Shown here piece by piece: positions 8,770 to 38,833 of a stretch of DNA of 64,000 nucleotides. The stretch covers positions 1-64,000 of the IMG/VR virus record IMGVR_UViG_3300045988_146036, one strand, 5' to 3'. The notes under the pieces are model-generated. The model saw only the letters and a list, made by a program, of their open reading frames with translations. It was not told the DNA's origin and ran no database searches. This stretch comes from a virus. Position numbers and translations under genes: made by a program. Every line of letters starts with the position of its first letter. The stretch's first letter is position 1.

Positions 8770-9852
8770 TTATTCTTCTTTTAGCAAAAAAGTTGGGGAA
8801 ATCGCTTTAAAGGAAATTCCCTGCTCATAATTTCTGCAAACAATACCTTCACGCTCTTGTGTATCAAGTAATACACTTTTACCACTCGCAAGATTGTTTA
8901 AGGTCTGTAAATCACTTGGCACATTGATACGCTTATAAACTACTGGCACTGTTTTAATGCGAAATTCTTTAAGAAGCTCTTCCATTTTTACTTGTGAAAC
9001 TTTAATGCCGTCAAGAATTAAATTATAAGCATAAAAATCATACCCACTAATCTTATATTTATTAGCTTGGATATTTTGCCCAATAATCTCACCTTGTAAA
9101 ACAACTTTTCTAAAGCCAAAGCAATCTTGAATCTCCTTTAAAGCCTCCTCAATCTGAAAGCGTCTTGCAATTTCCCAATAGGGCGAATTATCTTCCTTAC
9201 GTAGCCAAATATTTCTACTGCAAACCCCAAAAGTGCCGCCGTCTAAAAAGAAAGTTGAACTGCAGCCGTCGATTTTCTCTGTACAAGTTAGCGGAACACT
9301 ATCAGAACGCCATTGTTCAAGCTTATCAGTAATATTTTGCCAGCGTTCTTCATCAGTCTTGCTTGCAATGTAAGTAGGGAACTTTTCATTCTGTACATGG
9401 AATTTTGCATATAAGCGTCTAAACCAACGGAAACGCATTAAAGGCTTCCATAAGAATGTGAATCTTCCTTTTGGGGCAGCAACTGCCATGATTTTATTCT
9501 CTGCTTCAAGTTGCGGGTCAAATTTCGTAATATTCAATACTTTAGTTACATCTTCACCAACAGCGTATTCTTTATTTGGCAAGTAACTTAAAGGCAGAAT
9601 CAAACCTTGTGAAATCTGTTTGCGCAATTTAATAGTCTTAATGCGGTACTTTCTGTCTTTAAGGAACGCAAATTCTGGTCTTGCAGGGAGTACAGAATCT
9701 ACTTCAATATACACTACTTTATCGCCTTGCTGAAAGTTGTCACTCTTACTTACAACACATTCCCAACCTTTTACAGTTGCTTTTAAAATTCTATCTGCAT
9801 TTGGAATAGGCTCTAATTTATCTATAATTTCTACACTTGCTAATTTTCTCAT
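8770..9852 (-). CDS. ATP-dependent RNA/DNA ligase, Rnl5/DraRnl-like (N-terminal OB domain plus nucleotidyltransferase)
   Basis: N-terminus MRKLASVEIIDKLEPIPNADRI (OB-like as in NgrRnl/DraRnl); motif I TEKIDGCS (KxDG); motif IV EGIV; motif V FKAISPTFLLK. Confidence 0.55.
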   Translation of the reverse strand: MRKLASVEIIDKLEPIPNADRILKATVKGWECVVSKSDNFQQGDKVVYIEVDSVLPARPEFAFLKDRKYRIKTIKLRKQISQGLILPLSYLPNKEYAVGEDVTKVLNITKFDPQLEAENKIMAVAAPKGRFTFLWKPLMRFRWFRRLYAKFHVQNEKFPTYIASKTDEERWQNITDKLEQWRSDSVPLTCTEKIDGCSSTFFLDGGTFGVCSRNIWLRKEDNSPYWEIARRFQIEEALKEIQDCFGFRKVVLQGEIIGQNIQANKYKISGYDFYAYNLILDGIKVSQVKMEELLKEFRIKTVPVVYKRINVPSDLQTLNNLASGKSVLLDTQEREGIVCRNYEQGISFKAISPTFLLKEE

Positions 9853-11741
9853 TTAACTACCTCCGCTTCTACTGTTTTTTCATCGTCTGTATCTTCCATA
9901 AAAATTCGTTCTAAAATGCCACCAGATTGGGGATTCGCACCATGAACAACAGTTTGCTCAATACTTCCACCTTTAATTTTTGTTTGTGAAACCATAACTG
10001 GTCGTCCTTTTACTTCGTCTTGCAAATCTTTTAACTTAGTTAAATACCCAAAAGCATCCTGCATTGCCTGTGAAGTAGCCTTTGTAGGTGTTCCACCCAT
10101 AGCTGTTTCAAGCATAAAGGCTTTTTGAGCACGTTCTATTGCTAAATCAGCAATAGCCGTCATTCCCTGTATAACATCTTCTTGTTCCCTGGTATTAAAT
10201 CTACGGAACATTTTATCATATGCACAAATATACCCTGCTTGGTACTCTGTACAGTTTGCTGCCATTACGCATCTATCACAAGAAAGTCTAGGTAAAGCTC
10301 TTGTGGAAAGCTTTTTCTGTCGCTTAACCTTTTTGATACCTTTTAAGATATTGCCATTTTTATCATAAATTGGTTTAATACCTTGTTCTATTAAAGCTTT
10401 TTCAACATCATCTTTATCATATCCAGAAGTTAATAATGCAGGTAGAAGTTCTCCACACTCTTCCCTACTCATTTCAACCTCTAAATACTCTTTTTCTGTA
10501 ATATAGTCCTCACGTTCAAGTGCTATACGCTGCCCCTCTTCTGGATTCTGCAAATTTGACAACTCGTTTCGCATACCGTCAACGTGTTCTTTGAAAGCTT
10601 CTTGCAAAAACTTTATACACTTATCTTTTGTATTATAGTTTGCACCTGTTGCACCAAACATTGCACATAAACCTACAAGGTCGTCAAGCTCATAGTTCTT
10701 GGCTTCTTTAGGCTCGTTTAGAAAAATATAAGCATCATGTAAAATTGTTTCACCCGCTGTTTGAGGAATGTTTGTATCAATTCCTGCTAGTTCTAAGCGT
10801 TCCTGCCAATCTTGCATATCCCCTTCAAACCATGCTGCATCTGGAATAGAGTATCTAGTGTTTGAACGTGCTTCCCAATATTTTTGTGGTCGCATAACAT
10901 TTTTAACGTATTCTTCAAACTTCTTATAGCTAATGGCGTTTGCTTTTATAAGCTCATAAGGAGATTCTATTTCAAGCAACTTCTCCTTTAACCCCAACGC
11001 CTTTAGCTTTTCCATGTATTCCGTTTTCCATTGCTGCTTTTCAAGGTGTTTCATTTGCCCTGCTTCAAAGTAGGTAATTGTACCAAATTGCGCACCTGTC
11101 AAATAAGTAGTAGAATCTGCGGAAAAGAATGGATAGCTCAATAATAGTTTATTGCCTGTAATTGCAAAACCATGAATAGCAGACTTATACCTTTTAGCTA
11201 TTTGGAATAATTGTGAAATGAGATTTTCCCTTTCCCCCATATCCTCAATAGTATGCTTTATCTCCATGTACGAAAATCCAACATATGGATGCTGTTTACA
11301 AAGCTTTTCAAAATGCGATAAATCTTTATCTAAATGATAAAGATAAATAACATTTATTCCTTCTCTTTCTAATGGATAGAAATACTTTTCACGCCAACCT
11401 TCTACAATATCCTCGCCAACAATACTATCAATATCAAGTTCCACGCAGGCAAAGATATAGTCACGATACTCACGTACAAAGTTAACATACTTTACTAAAT
11501 AATCTTCCCACCATTCAATGGTCTTATTATTAAACTCTTTATCATTAAAAAAAATATAAGCACCACTATCAATTAAGACTTTCATTCCTCTATGGGACTT
11601 TAAGCGTTTTACAATTTCATCTAATCCACGTTTACGAATATACTTATAGGAAAGTAGCACATTCTTTGTTACAGAAGATGCTACTTCCCAGTTTTCTTTA
11701 GGCTCAACGCCTGATAATAAAAGCGTAAAATCACCTTTCAT
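9849..11741 (-). CDS. tRNA-guanine transglycosylase superfamily protein, DpdA-like (candidate 7-deazaguanine DNA transglycosylase) with C-terminal extension
   Basis: VLIDSGAY matches the TGT substrate-Asp motif (L/I)(T/I)DSGG(Y/F); Cys cluster SCDRCVMAANC as a candidate Zn site; adjacent to queC. 630 aa is much larger than typical DpdA. Confidence 0.45.
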   Translation of the reverse strand: MKGDFTLLLSGVEPKENWEVASSVTKNVLLSYKYIRKRGLDEIVKRLKSHRGMKVLIDSGAYIFFNDKEFNNKTIEWWEDYLVKYVNFVREYRDYIFACVELDIDSIVGEDIVEGWREKYFYPLEREGINVIYLYHLDKDLSHFEKLCKQHPYVGFSYMEIKHTIEDMGERENLISQLFQIAKRYKSAIHGFAITGNKLLLSYPFFSADSTTYLTGAQFGTITYFEAGQMKHLEKQQWKTEYMEKLKALGLKEKLLEIESPYELIKANAISYKKFEEYVKNVMRPQKYWEARSNTRYSIPDAAWFEGDMQDWQERLELAGIDTNIPQTAGETILHDAYIFLNEPKEAKNYELDDLVGLCAMFGATGANYNTKDKCIKFLQEAFKEHVDGMRNELSNLQNPEEGQRIALEREDYITEKEYLEVEMSREECGELLPALLTSGYDKDDVEKALIEQGIKPIYDKNGNILKGIKKVKRQKKLSTRALPRLSCDRCVMAANCTEYQAGYICAYDKMFRRFNTREQEDVIQGMTAIADLAIERAQKAFMLETAMGGTPTKATSQAMQDAFGYLTKLKDLQDEVKGRPVMVSQTKIKGGSIEQTVVHGANPQSGGILERIFMEDTDDEKTVEAEVVK

Positions 11742-11743
11742 TT

Positions 11744-11968
11744 TTAATTACGCCCCCAAGGTGTGATTCCTTTTCTATTTTTAGTTTTCCAAGAAGTTCT
11801 ATTCATAAATCTATAATATGGATTCGTTTGTAAATTATTTGTGTCGCCTGTTCTTCCCTGCTTAACACTTAAAAATCCACCTTTAGTCTTTTCAACACTT
11901 CTTGCTGCAATTTTAATCTGCGGAACAGAATTTTTCTTCTCCGAATTAGATTTATTTGCCAATCTCAT
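11744..11968 (-). CDS. small basic protein (74 aa)
   Basis: Lys/Arg-rich ORF between queC and the DpdA-like gene. Confidence 0.3.
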   Translation of the reverse strand: MRLANKSNSEKKNSVPQIKIAARSVEKTKGGFLSVKQGRTGDTNNLQTNPYYRFMNRTSWKTKNRKGITPWGRN

Positions 11969-12548
11969 TCCCCTCCTTCAAAAAATAACTAGGGTACCTA
12001 TGTGCTACACGCCATTTACAATTCTCACAAACACCACAAGGCTCGCCATTATCAGAAAAGTTACATGAAAAAGTATCCTCTAATTTTACACCAAGCCTGC
12101 ATCCAATCTTGAAAACATCATCTTTTGTAAGGTCTATGAAGGGTGCTAAAACTTTAACATTTGGAAATTCAATACTTAAAAATGAATTAAGAGCATCTAA
12201 CCATTTATGTGTACAGTCTGGGTATCTAGGAAAATTCTTAATAATTCCTAAATAAATATTTAAAGACTCTCCAACATAAAGCTTTGCAATAATATCCATT
12301 ACAAATAGAGTGTTTCTGTTTGGGATGTAATCTTCACCTAATAAATGTAAGTTAAAGTGTGCTAAATAATCTACATCATTATTAAACTTTTGTGAAAGAC
12401 ATTTAAACTCGTTTAAATTATATGTGCCACCTTCAACTTTAGTATAAAGCGCATGATAAACCTTTAAATCTAAATGCTCATCTTTTTTCAGATAATCATA
12501 AAGTACGGTACTATCATACCCACCACTCATACATATAATATTAGTCAT
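11952..12548 (-). CDS. queC: 7-cyano-7-deazaguanine synthase QueC
   Basis: N-terminal PP-loop ICMSGGYDST (SGGxDS) and C-terminal zinc motif CGVCENCKWR, both QueC hallmarks. Confidence 0.7.
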   Translation of the reverse strand: MTNIICMSGGYDSTVLYDYLKKDEHLDLKVYHALYTKVEGGTYNLNEFKCLSQKFNNDVDYLAHFNLHLLGEDYIPNRNTLFVMDIIAKLYVGESLNIYLGIIKNFPRYPDCTHKWLDALNSFLSIEFPNVKVLAPFIDLTKDDVFKIGCRLGVKLEDTFSCNFSDNGEPCGVCENCKWRVAHRYPSYFLKEGNEIGK

Positions 12549-13252: not shown

Positions 13253-13566
13253 TCTGTACACTCCACTGTACGGATACCATGCGCCCATGTATCTACAATT
13301 TCTTTAATACTATCATAGGTAATACCACCTAGGATTGTTAAAGCTGTAGAACATTCATCCTGCGCAACAGGGCATAATTTTTTATCATCCCAAGAATTAA
13401 AATGATAAAGATAGTAATAGTGCTCTTTCTCACCACCAAAAAACTCTAAAACATAAATTGGTTTACCACAAACGGGACATTTAAAATAACCAATAACTTC
13501 TTGCTCTCCCCAAGGAAACAAGATGTTCTCTTTTTCAAGATGTATAAATTCCATTGAATTACTCAT
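13249..13566 (-). CDS. hypothetical Cys-containing protein (105 aa)
   Basis: CPVCGKP motif; no QueD signature (CxxxHGH absent). Confidence 0.35.
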   Translation of the reverse strand: MSNSMEFIHLEKENILFPWGEQEVIGYFKCPVCGKPIYVLEFFGGEKEHYYYLYHFNSWDDKKLCPVAQDECSTALTILGGITYDSIKEIVDTWAHGIRTVECTE

Positions 13567-14186
13567 TGCGCAGTACCCCCTGTGATTAAATAGCTCATAG
13601 GCAACTTAGTTACACATTTGCAGAACCTCTGCCATTCTCTAGACTTGTGATGCTGTCTTTGTGCATACATCGTTTTAAGCTGCAAATAGTTTGTTGTCAT
13701 TCTTGCGGTTAAATGCAAGCCCATAGGAACATTACACATCATGGTGTCAAAATCAATCTTGCCCTCAGTGTAATCTTGAATTGCTCCAACTAAATTAAGC
13801 TTTGCTGTTTCAGTAACAGTAGTATCACACATTTTATCAATATCCATTTTTGTAAGGCAATGTACTTTACTCATTGAGCTTACGAAATCAAACCAGTGAT
13901 AACGCTGTGCCTGCTGCCACCAATATTGAGGTGCATTAACATCCATTTGCACAATAATCCCCTTTAAAAAGTTATTATGCCCAGTTCCTGCAGCCGTACT
14001 ACCAAGCTTTAAAGCTCTTCTAACATGCGCACCTGCTTCTACAGTTCCACGCATAAAAATGTCTGCTGCTACATCAGATACTCCACTTTCAAATTCTTTT
14101 TCGGTAGGAGGCTTTGAAAGCATTGGATAGCCGCTTGCATAAATAGACTCTTCCAATCCATAAAGTTTAACATTAGTAATTAGCAC
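13563..14186 (-). CDS. ThyX-like (flavin-dependent thymidylate synthase family) protein with a divergent active-site motif
   Basis: GHNNFLKGIIVQMDVNAPQYWWQQAQRYHW aligns to ThyX [29 protein letters not shown], but the RHR motif is replaced by RYHW; GTG start. Confidence 0.4.
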   Translation of the reverse strand: MLITNVKLYGLEESIYASGYPMLSKPPTEKEFESGVSDVAADIFMRGTVEAGAHVRRALKLGSTAAGTGHNNFLKGIIVQMDVNAPQYWWQQAQRYHWFDFVSSMSKVHCLTKMDIDKMCDTTVTETAKLNLVGAIQDYTEGKIDFDTMMCNVPMGLHLTARMTTNYLQLKTMYAQRQHHKSREWQRFCKCVTKLPMSYLITGGTAQ

Positions 14187-14730: not shown

Positions 14731-14759
14731 ATTATAGCACACCTTAAAGGTATTGTCAA
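14731..14759 (-). promoter_or_regulatory. sigma-A type promoter TTGACA-N17-TATAAT
   Basis: Minus strand reads TTGACAatacctttaaggtgtgcTATAAT. Confidence 0.6.
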
Positions 14760-14766
14760 CACTTTT

Positions 14767-15351
14767 CTAAAGCAATTTATGTAACTTTAAACCTGCTCTT
14801 GCATTTAAACGGTTTTTGGTTAAGAAAGTTTCTATCCTTTTAAAAATGTTTAAATCGTTTTTAAAAGGATAAAGTGTAACCATAGCAGATGTTGGATACT
14901 TCTTTAAAACCTTCTTTACATAATCAAAGTCAGAATCATCTTTTATTACGAATTTAACTTCATCATTACTATGTAATAATCTTAAATTATTTAAGATATT
15001 TTCATTGGCACAGTTTATAATTACACTATAAGCATAAGTTCTGTCATATAAACAATCTTCTAAAGGGATTCTACAAGACGTTTCCATAGTTACAATATAT
15101 GAGTATGCTAACAACTCATATACAAGTGTATAACTATCTTCCTGCAAAAGCGTTTCACCTTTTATACAAACATGCCTGTTTCCTAATTTATTTACTTTTG
15201 AGAGAATTCTATCTATTGACCAATCTGTGCCTTTGGCTAAATCAATAGGCTCTTGTATAAAAGTCGTTGCATATCCTGTGTACCTGCCCTCCCCCTGTAA
15301 AGCCGAATAAATTTCACATACTTTCACTTCGCCCAAAACCTCCCCAGTCAA
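14767..15351 (-). CDS. QueE-like (7-carboxy-7-deazaguanine synthase family) protein lacking the radical-SAM Cys triad
   Basis: EIYSALQGEGRYTG matches QueE EIFxxxQGEG; KGETLLQ matches GGEPLLQ; C-terminus KFVIKDDSDFDYVKKVLKKYP matches B. subtilis QueE VVIFNDEDLEFAKTVHKRYP; but no CxxxCxxC follows the FIQ segment. Confidence 0.5.
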   Translation of the reverse strand: MTGEVLGEVKVCEIYSALQGEGRYTGYATTFIQEPIDLAKGTDWSIDRILSKVNKLGNRHVCIKGETLLQEDSYTLVYELLAYSYIVTMETSCRIPLEDCLYDRTYAYSVIINCANENILNNLRLLHSNDEVKFVIKDDSDFDYVKKVLKKYPTSAMVTLYPFKNDLNIFKRIETFLTKNRLNARAGLKLHKLL

Positions 15352-15712
15352 GCTTAACTATCCTACCGTTTTTAGTACCAAAGTTTTCCAAGGTGCTATC
15401 CTCCAATAAAAAAGCAAGCTCATCACCTGTAACTTTATTCTTAAAATAATCTCTTACTAGATTGGCGCAATCAACACTGCTTAAAGACTTAGCTAAGGGC
15501 TGCACCCTCTCCATTACATTGCACCAACCAAAAGGGAATGAAATATATAATTTAGCTAAATGCTTGCTTTTATTCCTGTATTCCCACTCCTTTAAGTTTT
15601 GCTTACGTCCGTGGTATGGAAAACGTAAGTATGGAAATTTAATAGCAAGATTTCCTATTAAAATTACATACCTTGAACCACCACGTACAGTAGTAAAAAA
15701 ATTATCGTACAT
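15314..15712 (-). CDS. hypothetical protein (132 aa)
   Basis: ORF with GGAGG RBS. Confidence 0.35.
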   Translation of the reverse strand: MYDNFFTTVRGGSRYVILIGNLAIKFPYLRFPYHGRKQNLKEWEYRNKSKHLAKLYISFPFGWCNVMERVQPLAKSLSSVDCANLVRDYFKNKVTGDELAFLLEDSTLENFGTKNGRIVKLDWGGFGRSESM

Positions 15713-15755
15713 CTGACTCCTCCTAATAAAAATAGCCCCTATATAGGGGCTATAA

Positions 15756-16129: not shown

Positions 16130-16158
16130 ATTATATCACAAAATTCTTGTTTTGTCAA
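16130..16158 (-). promoter_or_regulatory. sigma-A type promoter TTGACA-N17-TATAAT upstream of spoVS
   Basis: Minus strand reads TTGACAaaacaagaattttgtgaTATAAT; about 85-nt leader. Confidence 0.55.
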
Positions 16159-20443: not shown

Positions 20444-20956
20444 TTATTTTGCATCATAATAACTATGCCCATAATCTGGGACTGCCTCCAAAGGAATTGT
20501 CAGATTTATGCCACGTTCCTGTAAACAATGTTCCATATGATATTGTAAACGCTCCATTCCAAGTTCCACGTATTTGGTTGGACACATTAAGCCTAACTCA
20601 TCGTGTACATTTAAGAATAAGTATGCACCTATTGCTTTAAGCACTGGGTCGCGGTCAACATCTAAGGTAGCAAACATTGCTACGTCCCCACCTGCACCCT
20701 GGCTCATTACATTTACCGCCACACGTTCTAAGTAGGAAGCTACTCTCTTATCACTGCTGTTAATATCCCATAAATGCCTTTTATGCCCACCAAGAGTCTT
20801 TACAAACCCATTTGACTGTGCAAAACGTATTACAGCTTTATCATAAGTATGCAAACCATAGAAACCTTCAAAATAACGGTCAATGTATTTCTGTGCTGTC
20901 TTTTGGTCTACATCCAAATTCTTACTTACTGCAACAGAAGTGCCGCCATAATCTAC
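20444..20956 (-). CDS. DNA polymerase I (family A), exon 2 (C-terminal; motif B tail and motif C)
   Basis: VDYGGTSVAVSKNLDVDQKTAQKYIDRYF aligns to Taq VLYGMSAHRLSQ...IERYF; VHDEL is motif C; the frame is open upstream of the tool start back to 20956. Confidence 0.7.
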   Translation of the reverse strand, partial: VDYGGTSVAVSKNLDVDQKTAQKYIDRYFEGFYGLHTYDKAVIRFAQSNGFVKTLGGHKRHLWDINSSDKRVASYLERVAVNVMSQGAGGDVAMFATLDVDRDPVLKAIGAYLFLNVHDELGLMCPTKYVELGMERLQYHMEHCLQERGINLTIPLEAVPDYGHSYYDAK

Positions 20957-21699
20957 CAGTCCGTTGTCCAGTATTACTACTGGTGTCAGACTATGCCTTT
21001 AGAACTCGCTGCCAGTAAAAACCATATATTTTAGTTTTATTTCTAATAGCCACTCTAATACCACTTGTATCTTTAGGAAAGTAACCAAGGCTATTTAAAA
21101 ACTTTAACACACTCTCTTTACTAACCAACGTATGTAATACATTACCATCACAATCACAAAGTAAATAGGTAACTGCATGATGCTCTTTTTGATGGCACTT
21201 CTTACATAATACTTGCAAGTTTGTATCTTCATTATTTTGCCTATTACCATCCCTATGATGTACCACTAAGTTCTTTATACTACCGCAAATCTCACATTTT
21301 GCCCCGTCAATTTTTGCCTTTAGAGGATAGCCCTTTATTCCATTCTTATAGAATGGCGAATCCTTACCTTTAGGCTGGGCATTATGTAAAAACCCACGGC
21401 TTTCACGGTCTTTAAAACGTGCATATCTTAACTTAGCTTCATATTTACAGTATACACAAAATTTTTGATTACGTCCAGTAGGAATATAATAATTCCCACA
21501 ATATTCACAAACTCTTTCTTTCATAGTTCATGTTCCCCATTAAATGTATTCGTAAGATTTATACTTAAAGTATAGCGATACATTATAAGTCGTTACACCG
21601 TCTTTTTACAAAGAAATTCGGCACGGCGTTGACCATTAAGTTATGGCAATCTTAATGGCTTTCACCGTTATGAGAGGAATTTTACTTCACCATACCTTT
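20957..21699 (-). mobile_element. group I intron (743 nt) carrying an HNH homing endonuclease, splitting the polA gene
   Basis: Exon 1 ends GGC TTC GCT (5' splice site after U, followed immediately by an in-frame stop KGMVK*); exon 2 starts GTA GAT TAT GGC after ...CTG (3' splice site after G). The predicted spliced junction KKIGFA|VDYGG restores pol I motif B. Confidence 0.65.
20991..21524 (-). CDS. HNH homing endonuclease (intron-encoded)
   Basis: N-terminal zinc ribbon CEYCG...CVYC; HNH motif LVVHHRDGNRQNN...CKKCHQKEHH. Confidence 0.75.
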   Translation of the reverse strand: MKERVCEYCGNYYIPTGRNQKFCVYCKYEAKLRYARFKDRESRGFLHNAQPKGKDSPFYKNGIKGYPLKAKIDGAKCEICGSIKNLVVHHRDGNRQNNEDTNLQVLCKKCHQKEHHAVTYLLCDCDGNVLHTLVSKESVLKFLNSLGYFPKDTSGIRVAIRNKTKIYGFYWQRVLKA

Positions 21700-23442
21700 A
21701 GCGAAGCCTATTTTTTTTGCAATTTGCCTTTTAGCAGGCTCACGCTTCTTTACATCATTCGGATTCATGTTTGCAAGCTCTGGAAAAACGATAGTTGCAA
21801 CTGTACCATGCGGGTCTAAGTTCTCTCTCAACATCTTTAAAAGCATCTTATCTTGTGACAAATGCGCCGTTAAGTATTTCTCCAAAGCATGATAATCACA
21901 AGCTATTACACTATAACCCTCATCAGCTATAAACAGCTTTCTTATTTCAAACCGTTCCCAAAAGTCAAAGTAGGTTCTATCTTCACCCGCTTTCGGCTCT
22001 TCTAGTGGGTGCGGCAGCTGCTGGAGGTTTGGGTATTGACTACTTAATCTATAAGAATCCGTGCCACAAATATTGAAGCTACAATGGACTTTACCATCAC
22101 TATAAATATTCTCCCTTAACCCTATCATAAATGCACTAATAAGTTTAGAAAGTTTTTTATAAGTTACAAGCTCTGTAATAAAATCATGTGCTTTTGCATC
22201 AACATTCTTCTGCTTTAAAAGAGCTTTTAAAATATCCCCACCTGTTTTCGGCGTTTGTAACTCTTCATAACCATATTTACCACCTGTTGTAAACTCTATT
22301 GGTTTAAAACCAAAGTTTACGTCTACTAAATTATTATTGCAAGATTCTACAAACATTACCTGTGAAGGCTCATTCATATACAAGTTTTTAAGCTTAGTTT
22401 TTTCAGTCGTAGTGTATCCAACACTTTCCATTTCAAAGGCATTTTGTGCGCTTGGAGTAAGCCTCATAACTTTCTTTTTAAAGCCAAAAAGGATTTCATA
22501 AAGATGTTGTCCACTATCGGGATTAAACTCTACCCCTGTCAAAGAAAACATTTTATATTTAGAGTTTTCTAATTCTTTCTCTGCAAGTTCCTGCATCTTA
22601 TCAAGGGCAGCAATATCTACACTTACACCTTTTCTTTCCATTTTCCAAAGTGCTTTCATAAAAGGCATACGGCACTTAATATACATATCATAAGAATCAT
22701 CTTCTCTTAGACCTTTTTCAAGCATTGGATACATTTGCTTCATAAACCAAACGTCCTCGGCTGAATACTGCGCTCCGATTGGAATTTGAACATGCTGAAA
22801 GCTTGCATTATTAGTAGCCTTTAAACCCTGTGAAAGCTTTTCTTCTTTAGTAACAGTTTTAATGGTATCACTATAATGTGACTTTTCAACTTTAAAAATC
22901 ATCTTAGTAACACTTTCAAGATTCTTTTCTACATTCTCATCTAGTGTATGCACCATTATTTGTGTATCTTGAAAAGTGTTTACATCAAAGACTTTATAAA
23001 TATCAATTCCTTCATTAGCTAGTAAATGTAAATCATAATCTTGATTATGCGCAATGTATTCTTTACCACCGCACTCCATAATAGATTTAAGTTCTGCTGC
23101 AAACTTAAAAGAGTCTACGTTATAATAAGTTCCTTCAAATTTTTCTGGACAAAAATCTAGGAACTTTTCAAGCTGTGCTTTCTTCAAGAAAGAGAATCTG
23201 CCATTATCCTCATATTTTCCCTCGAACACGTGTCTTACAGGAACATAAAAAACATCTTTAGATGTAGCATCATCAAAAGCAAATGTAAAGCCTACTGTAT
23301 AATCTTTACCCACAGCACGTACATTTAACCCGGATGTTTCAGTATCCCAAAAGACTTGTCTTGCACTTTTAAATAGATTTAAAAAGGCACTTAGAGTACC
23401 TTCTTGAACAATATTTAATTTAAAATACTTTTGGTGATACAT
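21700..23442 (-). CDS. DNA polymerase I (family A), exon 1 (3'-5' exonuclease domain through motif B start)
   Basis: Exo I motif VFWDTETSGL; ends RQIAKKIGFA (motif B RxxAKxxNFG). Confidence 0.7.
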
Positions 23443-37609: not shown

Positions 37610-38833
37610 TTACATTCCACCTTCCATTCTCCAAAACTCATCAGCACATTCCTGCACCGCGCTAAAAAACTCCCTTATATAATCGCATTGTACAAATTCT
37701 TCTTTGTTTTCTTTCTTATAGGCTATTGGACAAATTGACCTGCATAAAGGTAGACATTCACATTCTGCGCAATTTCGTGGCAATAACTTTAACCACTCCA
37801 TTTCATGTGCTTTTAATATATCTGAATAATCATCTTTAATATTTGCAACCACTTTATTATCATTGTGGCATCTTATTATATTACCTGCAAAATCTATAGA
37901 TAAAGAGATACGTCCAGGTGCGCAAGGTGGAAATGGGGAAAGCATAAAACTTTCTTTAGAGAAGTAAGTCCCTCTTCTAAGTTTAGTTTCAAACCACCTA
38001 TGTACATTTGAATCCCTTGTTTCTTTATAATATTCAAATAAATCTTTTACTGCTTTTCTTACTTCGCCCTTCTCAAAAGCGTATAAATCTTTTGGTATAT
38101 CCCATAGTACATTTATAAAACCTAGAGTTACCTCAGTATTGGGGAATTTTGACTCCAAGTATTTAAAAGCAGTTACCATATCACAATTTAAGGCATTGTA
38201 TACCCCATTTACCGTTCTTTTTTCTGCCAACAAAAAAGCTTCTATATTTCTCTCTAGCGGCATGGCGTTTCTTGCAGCTAGAGGGTTGGGTGCATCATAA
38301 CTCATAATTACCCATATATTATGTTTGTTACAAAAGTCTACAATGGAATTTGAAAGTAATAGACCATTGGTGAAAATGCGATAAGAAATATTTCTCATAC
38401 CCATTTTTTCAAACTCTTCTATAAGTTTCTTTATTGTAGTCCAATAAAGTAAAGGTTCACCACCCCAAAAATAGAGCCTACCTCCACCTGCTTTATCCCA
38501 TTTTACTATAAAGTCTAGTACATCCTTGCTTAACTCAGTAGTGGGAAAAGCAACATCACATTTAATAGGAGTTTGTGTACAATGTCTGCAAGACATATTA
38601 CATGCACTGCCTAGCATCAGATAAAGTGCTTTTACACCTTCCGTGGATACCGAATCCCCTTCACAGTGAATAACATCCCCATTAACAAATTTGTCACCCT
38701 CTTGAATGTCGACCCCTGTAATATCCACATAATCTCCATCCCCAACTAAATCTTTAAACTCTTTTAATGTATTATTTGTTATAAATTTTGCCACCAATAC
38801 ATCATCTATTAATTTTCCAATTTGTAATACCAT
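37610..38833 (-). CDS. radical SAM / SPASM-domain maturase
   Basis: CNMSCRHC (CxxxCxxC) near the N-terminal third; C-terminal SPASM-type cluster NCAECECLPLCRSICP. Confidence 0.6.
   Translation of the reverse strand: MVLQIGKLIDDVLVAKFITNNTLKEFKDLVGDGDYVDITGVDIQEGDKFVNGDVIHCEGDSVSTEGVKALYLMLGSACNMSCRHCTQTPIKCDVAFPTTELSKDVLDFIVKWDKAGGGRLYFWGGEPLLYWTTIKKLIEEFEKMGMRNISYRIFTNGLLLSNSIVDFCNKHNIWVIMSYDAPNPLAARNAMPLERNIEAFLLAEKRTVNGVYNALNCDMVTAFKYLESKFPNTEVTLGFINVLWDIPKDLYAFEKGEVRKAVKDLFEYYKETRDSNVHRWFETKLRRGTYFSKESFMLSPFPPCAPGRISLSIDFAGNIIRCHNDNKVVANIKDDYSDILKAHEMEWLKLLPRNCAECECLPLCRSICPIAYKKENKEEFVQCDYIREFFSAVQECADEFWRMEGGM

Follow-up and report, generated by a model that had tools for sequence, protein, structure and literature searches.

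The stretch of DNA analysed here (hereafter the window) comprises 64,000 nucleotides, positions 1 to 64,000 of the IMG/VR virus record IMGVR_UViG_3300045988_146036, and is a segment of a phage genome with a G+C content of 35% and every gene on the minus strand. It carries one QueE-like gene, and the encoded homologue of the radical S-adenosylmethionine (SAM) enzyme 7-carboxy-7-deazaguanine (CDG) synthase, a member of the queuosine pathway, has lost the loop that binds the iron-sulfur cluster through a clean in-frame deletion, while the gene itself is under purifying selection. Radical-SAM enzymes are defined by their cluster, and a QueE that lacks it yet is maintained by selection implies that the QueE fold does something else in this phage. 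We lean towards the explanation that the protein no longer works as a CDG synthase but is retained because it serves the QueC/DpdA module of the phage in a way that does not need the cluster, and that the precursor for this module comes from the host. In the literature searched, we found no description of a cluster-less QueE, of a radical-SAM pseudoenzyme of such a kind, or of a repurposed QueE fold.

The longest mechanically called open reading frame (ORF) of the gene, 14767..15351 on the minus strand, starts from a TTG at 15351 and encodes 194 amino acids. The true start is probably the GTG at 15327, which gives a protein of 186 amino acids (Table 1), since a GGGGAGG Shine-Dalgarno sequence lies ahead of it and its position coincides with the ATG of homologues and sister genes. 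A first-pass annotation, made from the letters alone, had proposed on the strength of several peptides that the gene encodes a QueE homologue devoid of the CxxxCxxC motif. All of these peptides (EIYSALQGEGRYTG, KGETLLQ, KFVIKDDSDFDYVKKVLKKYP and TTFIQEPIDLAKGTDWS) were found in the translated ORF, and the C-terminal peptide of Bacillus subtilis QueE with which it had been compared aligned at the claimed place in a profile alignment.

Profile alignment and structure overlay both upheld the homology. The NCBIfam QueE model TIGR04349 matched the protein end to end (E=5.9e-23; ORF residues 9-194 against positions 1-203 of 210 in the model), the 'QueE-like' PHROG 2076 gave a match at E=8.8e-13, and a profile of the family retrieved three solved QueE proteins from the PDB at 2e-19 to 2e-13. 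An AlphaFold model, resting on 35 sequences, had a pLDDT of 90.4 and a pTM of 0.83. When this model was submitted to Foldseek, the top four PDB matches were the QueE structures 6nhl, 5th5 and 4njg (probability 1.0, TM 0.68-0.74); the solved QueE structures matched come from Escherichia coli, B. subtilis and Burkholderia multivorans. Together these matches make the protein, by sequence and modelled fold, a genuine QueE-fold protein with a similarity far beyond chance. The curated cut-offs were not reached (TIGR04349, 81.7 versus 300 bits; TIGR03963, 49.7 versus 260 bits), and a Pfam scan of the protein gave no match to Radical_SAM or Fer4_12, whereas intact homologues have one. Because it fails these family-defining tests, the protein is not classifiable as a functional QueE and should not be annotated as a CDG synthase. 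One IMG record does name this form '7-carboxy-7-deazaguanine synthase', and through such automated naming pathway reconstructions would wrongly predict autonomous preQ0 synthesis in these phages.

The losses were mapped by aligning the protein with 30 intact homologues; replaced residues are numbered by its 186-amino-acid form, and residue roles follow E. coli QueE. In the E. coli enzyme the substrate is bound by Q13, E15 and R27, the cluster is ligated by C31, C35 and C38, T40 is the Mg ligand, and SAM is contacted by G94, S136 and Q189, while an R27A substitution abolishes catalysis (PMC11142719). The cluster-binding triad of QueE (CxxxCxxC or Cx14CxxC) follows strand beta1; its three cysteines are conserved in all of the intact homologues (30/30), and the R, GC, C, YC and D of this region are 97-100% conserved. 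In the window protein each of these is deleted or changed. A 13-residue segment, L-xGCxxxCxYCDxx in the intact homologues, is gone. Between beta1 and the first helix there is only a 12-residue loop (EPIDLAKGTDWS), and none of the three reading frames across 15180..15300 restores a CxxxCxxC. At the junction, Gln25 occupies the position of the invariant substrate-binding Arg27, and the Mg-binding Thr40 falls inside the deleted segment.

The first-pass annotation was thus right about the cluster loop, but its account of the losses was too short. Apart from Arg27 and the Mg-binding Thr, parts of the SAM-binding motifs have gone: the GGE motif is degraded and the end of strand beta3 altered (Table 1), the latter by Cys85, which is fixed in the clade and present in none of the 30 intact homologues. 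Furthermore, the beta4 segment MDIKCPSS has become VIINCA with an additional five-residue deletion, the beta6 segment SPMF reads YPFK, and the C-terminal QLHK reads KLHK. Retained are Q11, G12, E13, F23, H183 and K184, of which Q11 and E13 correspond to Q13 and E15 in E. coli. On these alignments the protein is without all cluster-binding elements and most of the elements that bind SAM and the substrate carboxylate. Conceivably, the replacement of Arg by Gln at the carboxylate site and of Gln by Lys two residues ahead of the stacking His could reflect an altered ligand or a charge swap.

It is very likely, then, that the protein is unable to bind a cluster. The earlier, categorical wording that it cannot do so stands for the loop and the triad but stops short of proof, as five other cysteines (residues 4, 54, 85, 92 and 106) are invariant in the clade. 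They are the starting point for the view that the protein is still a CDG synthase, with its cluster relocated to Cys85, Cys92 and Cys106 at the ends of beta3 and beta4 or supplied by another protein. Cys4, like Cys85, has no counterpart in any of the 30 intact homologues, Cys85 and Cys106 each directly follow adjacent strands in the AlphaFold model, and non-canonical arrangements of cluster ligands exist in other SAM-radical enzymes. Even so, we consider this view exceedingly improbable: Arg27, the Mg-binding Thr, one Gly and the Pro of GGEP, the KCPSS of beta4 and the SPMF of beta6 are all lost, and queD, the source of the substrate, is gone. Moreover, 21 of the 30 intact homologues have a Cys just one position later (ETSGC), which makes cysteines ordinary in this place.

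Neither a sequencing error nor a frameshift accounts for the deletion, which recurs identically in independent ENA, Logan and IMG/VR assemblies. Among 20 full-length clade sequences, drawn from clusters with more than 200 sequence variants, the triad was absent and the ORF intact in every one (20/20). The 90%-identity cluster of the representative P0001 has 201 members, the P0004 type was present on at least 14 contigs, and many of the contigs with a cluster-less QueE are ∼90-105 kb long. The ratio of nonsynonymous to synonymous substitution rates (dN/dS) of the gene was 0.10 between the window and relative L002 (76% amino-acid identity, dS 1.5) and 0.06-0.07 between the window and relative L005 (dS 0.6-0.7), the dS of the most distant pair being close to saturation; for 14 neighbouring genes, including those for RecA, DpdA and QueC, it ranged from 0.01 to 0.22. 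The gene is therefore under purifying selection, like its neighbours, and its recurrence in assemblies together with the low dN/dS shows that it is neither an artefact nor a pseudogene. Judged by its residues, the protein is a putative pseudoenzyme: the catalytic residues are lost and the gene is under purifying selection.

These data also bear on the proposal that the gene is a functionless, decaying remnant, a pseudogene in progress. The loss of the partner gene queD and of most catalytic features would fit such a decay. Nonetheless, dN/dS is as low as in the genes of the RecA neighbourhood at a dS of 0.7-1.5, no disruption of the ORF was seen in the 20 full-length sequences or on many contigs, the AlphaFold model has a high confidence, and a second cluster-less clade, described below, persists across at least five 50%-identity clusters. 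We regard decay as very improbable, and the selection data essentially exclude it.

The gene belongs to a 7-deazaguanine module that further comprises a QueC-like gene, a DpdA-like DNA transglycosylase gene and, between these two, a small conserved ORF (Table 1). The DpdA-like protein is 41% identical to gp021 of Bacillus phage BCD7, a protein classed as DpdA by Hutinet 2019 (Supplementary Data 1; PMC6884629), and its dN/dS was 0.05. Compared with the QueC signature motifs (PMC13329287), the QueC-like protein has the PP-loop SGGxDS, IPNRN for (V/I)PxRN, YPDC and the zinc motif C(x)8CxxCxxC; its YxQxHxxE is unrecognisable, and this motif is likewise diverged in the sister lineages with an intact QueE. 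No folE, queD or second queE was found in the window by Pfam scans, which were extended to 37 further ORFs, or by tblastn with FolE, QueD and QueE of BCD7, L007 and L008. In addition, a complete 99-kb IMG/VR relative, 96% identical, was walked over its whole genome; the 31.8 kb not covered by the window contain methyltransferases, PAPS-reductase-like genes, a dUTPase, TnpB, a split anaerobic NrdD and a ligase, and again no folE, queD or second queE.

By its gene content, the phage is without a CDG supply of its own, lacking FolE, QueD and an active QueE. With neither folE nor queD and with a dead queE, the pathway could not start from GTP and would have to rely on a host intermediate, so that CDG or preQ0 would be supplied by the host. 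The first-pass annotation had offered two alternatives, a repurposed QueE or CDG obtained in some other way. Both probably hold together, given the purifying selection on the gene and the absence of queD, folE and a second, bona fide queE.

The history of the gene could be read from five sister lineages (L007, L008, L024, L025 and L026), in which spoVS, queD, a gene for 121-133 amino acids and an intact queE are followed by queC, a gene for ∼72 amino acids and dpdA, and in which QueE matches Pfam Radical_SAM. The window clade is nested among these lineages in both RecA and QueE trees, and it lacks queD, which was excised cleanly (Table 1): a spoVS terminator-like hairpin (15732..15753, minus strand) and a ribosome-binding site precede queD in the sisters and precede a kinase-like gene here. 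In synteny and in the overlap with the gene upstream, the cluster-less gene matches the intact queE of the sisters. In this genome it is consequently their orthologue and not, as first suggested, a QueE paralogue. The hairpin, which is conserved, lies downstream of spoVS and is followed by a T-run, and between lineages its stem varies on both sides (AGCCCC/GGGGCT versus ACCCCC/GGGGGT). A perfect match to an extended -10 sigma-70 promoter (16130..16158, minus strand) precedes spoVS.

In a relative-rate test with BCD7 as the outgroup, QueE had 29 unique changes in the cluster-less lineage versus 12 in an intact one (p=0.008); other lineage pairs gave p=0.004-0.12, with a roughly twofold excess on the cluster-less branch. 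QueC, DpdA and SpoVS showed no asymmetry in the same test. A rate excess confined to QueE, combined with the low dN/dS, indicates that QueE changed rapidly on the stem branch and then came under strong constraint.

Such a burst of substitutions, which fell mainly on strand ends lining the old active site, would also be expected if the protein had become a new enzyme, whose remodelled pocket modifies a 7-deazaguanine or pterin intermediate, for instance CDG, 7-amido-7-deazaguanine (ADG) or preQ0, without the use of SAM. All nine replaced pocket residues (Q25, K56, T59, C85, N105, A107, Y153, K156 and K181) are invariant in the 20 clade sequences, as against 69% of positions overall, and Q11, E13, F23, H183 and K184 have been kept. 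There are precedents for repurposed Que proteins in DpdL (PMC10516641) and in QatC and Cap9 (PMC13329287). However, the nine positions were selected post hoc, the replaced positions as a whole are not enriched in invariance among the same sequences (12/20 versus the 69% background), and the modest divergence inside the clade makes per-site conservation weakly informative. Furthermore, there is no recognisable catalytic motif, the same residues did not arise in the independent clade of cluster-less proteins, and no extra gene hints at a new product. We therefore consider a new enzyme rather unlikely, though worth keeping in mind.

Loss of the cluster is not restricted to the window clade. In an exhaustive HMMER search of 1.84 billion representatives, which gave 611 matches, 123 of the best 150 had a triad-like motif. 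Full-length cluster-less proteins outside the window clade were P0067, P0071, P0073, P0078 and P0092, which form one clade covering five separate 50%-identity clusters, and P0171 as a further case, encoded directly downstream of queD. The P0067 locus, in a BCD7-like phage, reads spoVS, queD, intact QueE, cluster-less QueE-like gene, nuclease, queC, folE and dpdA; the intact QueE in it is of the B. subtilis type (CDYSCSWC), and among GenBank phage proteins P0067 comes closest to the intact QueE of BCD7, with 46% identity. P0071 and P0078 share this trio, made up of the C-terminus of an intact QueE, the cluster-less copy and QueC. On this evidence from alignment and gene order, phage-type QueE has persisted after losing its cluster in at least two or three instances, in one of them beside a QueE predicted to work. 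These paralogues resemble the window protein in their phage-type QueE origin, in the deletion of the loop at the same place and in adjoining queC in deazaguanine clusters. They differ from it in forming an independent clade, in coexisting with an intact B. subtilis-type QueE and in the loss of QGEG and QLHK; QGEG and the C-terminal region are retained in the window protein.

Two other groups of matches deserve mention. Some ten representatives of ∼160 amino acids (P0072, P0116, P0139, P0146, P0148, P0149, P0163, P0166, P0192 and P0194) begin with a Met just past the cluster loop and retain GGEP, ETNG and KCPSSG; these could be split genes, genes with mis-called starts or N-terminally truncated QueE. 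Among GenBank phages, megablast with the 6 kb around the window gene gave no match, and hence no annotated close relative, while the tblastn matches were confined to BCD7, whose QueE is intact, and Bacteroides phage BS162P1. Because its tblastn alignment seemed to lack the N-terminus, the BS162P1 protein was considered as a second cluster-less case; it was rejected, as it actually carries CNLRC..x8..C.

The explanation we lean towards, a dead CDG synthase retained in the QueC/DpdA module, would run as follows. The lineage would have abandoned its own CDG synthesis, queD having been deleted and folE being absent, and a late 7-deazaguanine precursor, CDG or preQ0, would be taken from the host. 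The phage QueC and DpdA would then convert this precursor and insert the product into phage DNA. The cluster-less protein would survive because phage-type QueE has a second, cluster-independent role, most likely as a non-catalytic partner of QueC and DpdA, be it a scaffold, a ligand carrier or a channelling subunit. An accessory role and dependence on a host intermediate are suggested by the joint loss of queD and the cluster, by the retention of queC and dpdA, and by the cluster-less copies that stand beside an intact QueE. Within the window clade, the half of the old pocket that reads the 2-amino-4-oxo face of a pterin or deazapurine is preserved (Gln11, Glu13, Phe23, His183 and Lys184), which makes binding of a deazaguanine intermediate plausible. 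In phage 9g, DpdA appears to receive the product of Gat-QueC by channelling (PMC6884629), and this apparent channelling lends plausibility to a carrier or scaffold role.

Several points weigh against this explanation. The partner, the ligand and the activity of the protein are inferred, and the supply of precursor from the host is assumed. The P0067-group clade, marked by 'MSLR', is also without QGEG and the C-terminal HK, which makes a ligand-binding role shared across the clades doubtful, and the functions may differ. The invariance of the nine remodelled pocket residues would be as compatible with a new catalytic site as with one for binding, and the five invariant cysteines leave a small chance of another metal site. 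Finally, no promoter-like site was recognised directly upstream of the pair formed by the kinase-like gene and the cluster-less queE, and a terminator-like hairpin lies ahead of it.

A more far-reaching idea, which we put forward tentatively as a possibility, is that the second function is indispensable for deazaguanine DNA modification, with the protein acting either as an obligate carrier or channelling subunit for QueC and DpdA or as a SAM-independent enzyme that uses the remodelled pocket. The cluster-less proteins would then be an accessory family that has arisen at least two to three times, and they would mark a shortened route to deazaguanine DNA, which hijacks a host intermediate, in widespread phages of ∼100 kb, possibly to a different base.

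QueE proteins can act independently of CDG synthesis, as is known from E. coli, where QueE blocks septation without catalysis and the catalytically dead R27A variant is still active in this respect (PMC11142719). By analogy, the window protein might target the host, binding host QueE or another protein and so diverting or blocking queuosine-tRNA synthesis, or blocking division. QueE is a dimer, and an inactive subunit might, in principle, either poison a partner or recruit one. The E. coli effect, however, depends on the enterobacterial E45-W67 insertion as well as on cysteines C31 and C35 of the cluster; the window protein has neither, its loop at the place of the insertion being short. Septation activity is likewise absent from QueE of B. 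subtilis and Pseudomonas aeruginosa (PMC11142719). Low identity to bacterial QueE makes heterodimers unlikely, and the conserved placement in deazaguanine clusters argues for a role in the pathway. An action against the host thus seems improbable to us.

Set beside known systems, the protein is like QueE (TIGR04349/TIGR03963; 4NJG, 5TH5 and 6NHL) in its full-length homology, its modified (beta/alpha) barrel, the counterparts of Q13 and E15, the C-terminal His-Lys and the genomic place it shares with queE of the sisters. It is unlike QueE in the missing cluster loop and Mg-binding Thr, the Gln in place of Arg27, and the degraded GGE and other SAM motifs. The dPreQ0 clusters of Bacillus phage BCD7 and Escherichia phage CAjan consist of DpdA with FolE, QueD, QueE and QueC (PMC6884629). 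The window module shares with BCD7 the order of DpdA and QueC, the spoVS neighbour and a QueE-like gene at the queE position; it differs from both phages in the absence of folE and queD, genome-wide as judged from the relative, and in a queE predicted to be catalytically dead. DpdL is a QueD paralogue and predicted CDG decarboxylase in phages (PMC10516641), and QatC and Cap9 are QueC-fold proteins repurposed in defence (PMC13329287). As in the case proposed here, these are preQ0-pathway enzymes that were repurposed after loss or change of signature motifs and stayed in deazaguanine clusters, although their folds are not that of QueE. If our explanation is correct, the QueE fold would join the repurposed scaffolds of the preQ0 pathway, next to QueD (DpdL), QueC (QatC/Cap9) and TGT (DpdA).

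Table 1. Features of the window around the cluster-less queE gene, and cluster-less QueE-like loci elsewhere
Feature	Position	Strand	Details
Cluster-less QueE homologue, coding sequence (probable start)	14767..15327	-	186 amino acids, GTG start
Deletion junction	15250..15255	-	Codons Gln25-Glu26 (CAA GAG); from alignments
Degraded SAM-binding GGE motif	15151..15162	-	K-G-E-T where T-G-G-E-P is invariant
End of strand beta3	15073..15084	-	E-T-S-C where E-T-S-G is invariant
Kinase-like upstream gene	15314..15712	-	132 amino acids; 14-nt overlap with start of cluster-less queE
Spacer at site of missing queD	15713..15755	-	Comparison with sister phages
Sigma-70-type promoter match	14731..14759	-	12/12 with extended TG; pattern match only
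QueC-like gene	11952..12548	-	198 amino acids; PF06508, E=1.3e-23
Small conserved ORF between queC and dpdA	11744..11968	-	74 amino acids; conservation
DpdA-like DNA transglycosylase	9849..11741	-	630 amino acids; phrog_887, E=2.5e-65
Cluster-less QueE-like locus, L027	8001..8564		
Cluster-less QueE-like locus, L028	227..820		
Cluster-less QueE-like locus, L029	323..907		
Cluster-less QueE-like locus, L030	801..1394		

The promoter match right after the stop codon of the cluster-less queE probably starts the next transcription unit. The kinase-like gene on its other side is found directly ahead of queE in each of the six lineages; where queD is present, the gene stands between it and queE. Its product falls in phrog_4301, to which no function is assigned, and has no Pfam match. 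Invariant residues (G11, G12, R14, K25, E42, D105, N110 and D122-W-G) make up a minimal protein-kinase-like signature, and a Foldseek search with its AlphaFold model (pLDDT 76) gave kinase domains, including the minimal RNA kinase Ark1 (8yv5, TM 0.50/0.40). The embedding of such a gene in a deazaguanine cluster is unexplained. In the C-terminal third of the DpdA-like protein, residues 472-604 gave weak matches to terminase small-subunit PHROGs (E=1.7e-4) and contain a Cys-rich stretch, CDRCVMAANC...C; this part could represent a DNA-binding domain joined to the transglycosylase.

The only CxxxCxxC in a real window ORF belongs to a SPASM-type radical-SAM protein of 407 amino acids (37610..38833, minus strand; motif LGSACNMSCRHC), which is encoded among tail and structural genes. 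It was considered as a substitute CDG synthase and rejected, as it is not related to QueE. In NCBIfam it came closest to the PapB ranthipeptide and SCIFF thioether maturases, at E=1e-18 and well short of the cut-offs, and it also matched a SPASM domain. A peptide or a structural protein of the phage may be crosslinked by it.

A protein of 207 amino acids encoded at 13563..14186 (minus strand) belongs to phrog_6721 and has no Pfam match. L007 and L025 have an intein-interrupted Pfam Thy1 (ThyX) gene in this place, while in L005 and L012 only about half of the protein matches and the region carries an insertion; the window protein is probably a diverged ThyX-like protein. A Mom-like gene (PF25680) lies between queE and queC in L024 (7452..8066), L025 (8959..9579) and L026 (7451..7633), and the window clade gave no match to Mom. 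These phages appear to stack several DNA-modification systems.

Outside the window, the contig of the relative represented by L015 and L022 carries at 52-73 kb two PAPS-reductase/DndC-like genes, a C5-cytosine methyltransferase gene, a TnpB-like transposase gene, an N6/N4 methyltransferase gene apparently split into two ORFs and an anaerobic NrdD gene split by an HNH endonuclease gene; the split anaerobic NrdD suggests an anaerobic host. At ∼44.9-46.8 kb of the IMG/VR contig (L013, 18600..20471), the 96%-identical relative has a stretch of ∼2 kb without any ORF of at least 60 amino acids, located at a switch in gene direction, which may be an origin, a terminus or a regulatory region. In the window, the gene for DNA polymerase A (20444..23442, minus strand) is split by an HNH endonuclease gene at 20991..21524, and inteins or LAGLIDADG elements interrupt it in relatives (L005, 189..3122; L007, 253..3655). 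Inteins are also present in the RNA ligase and ThyX genes of relatives, and mobile-element traffic in this group of phages is heavy.

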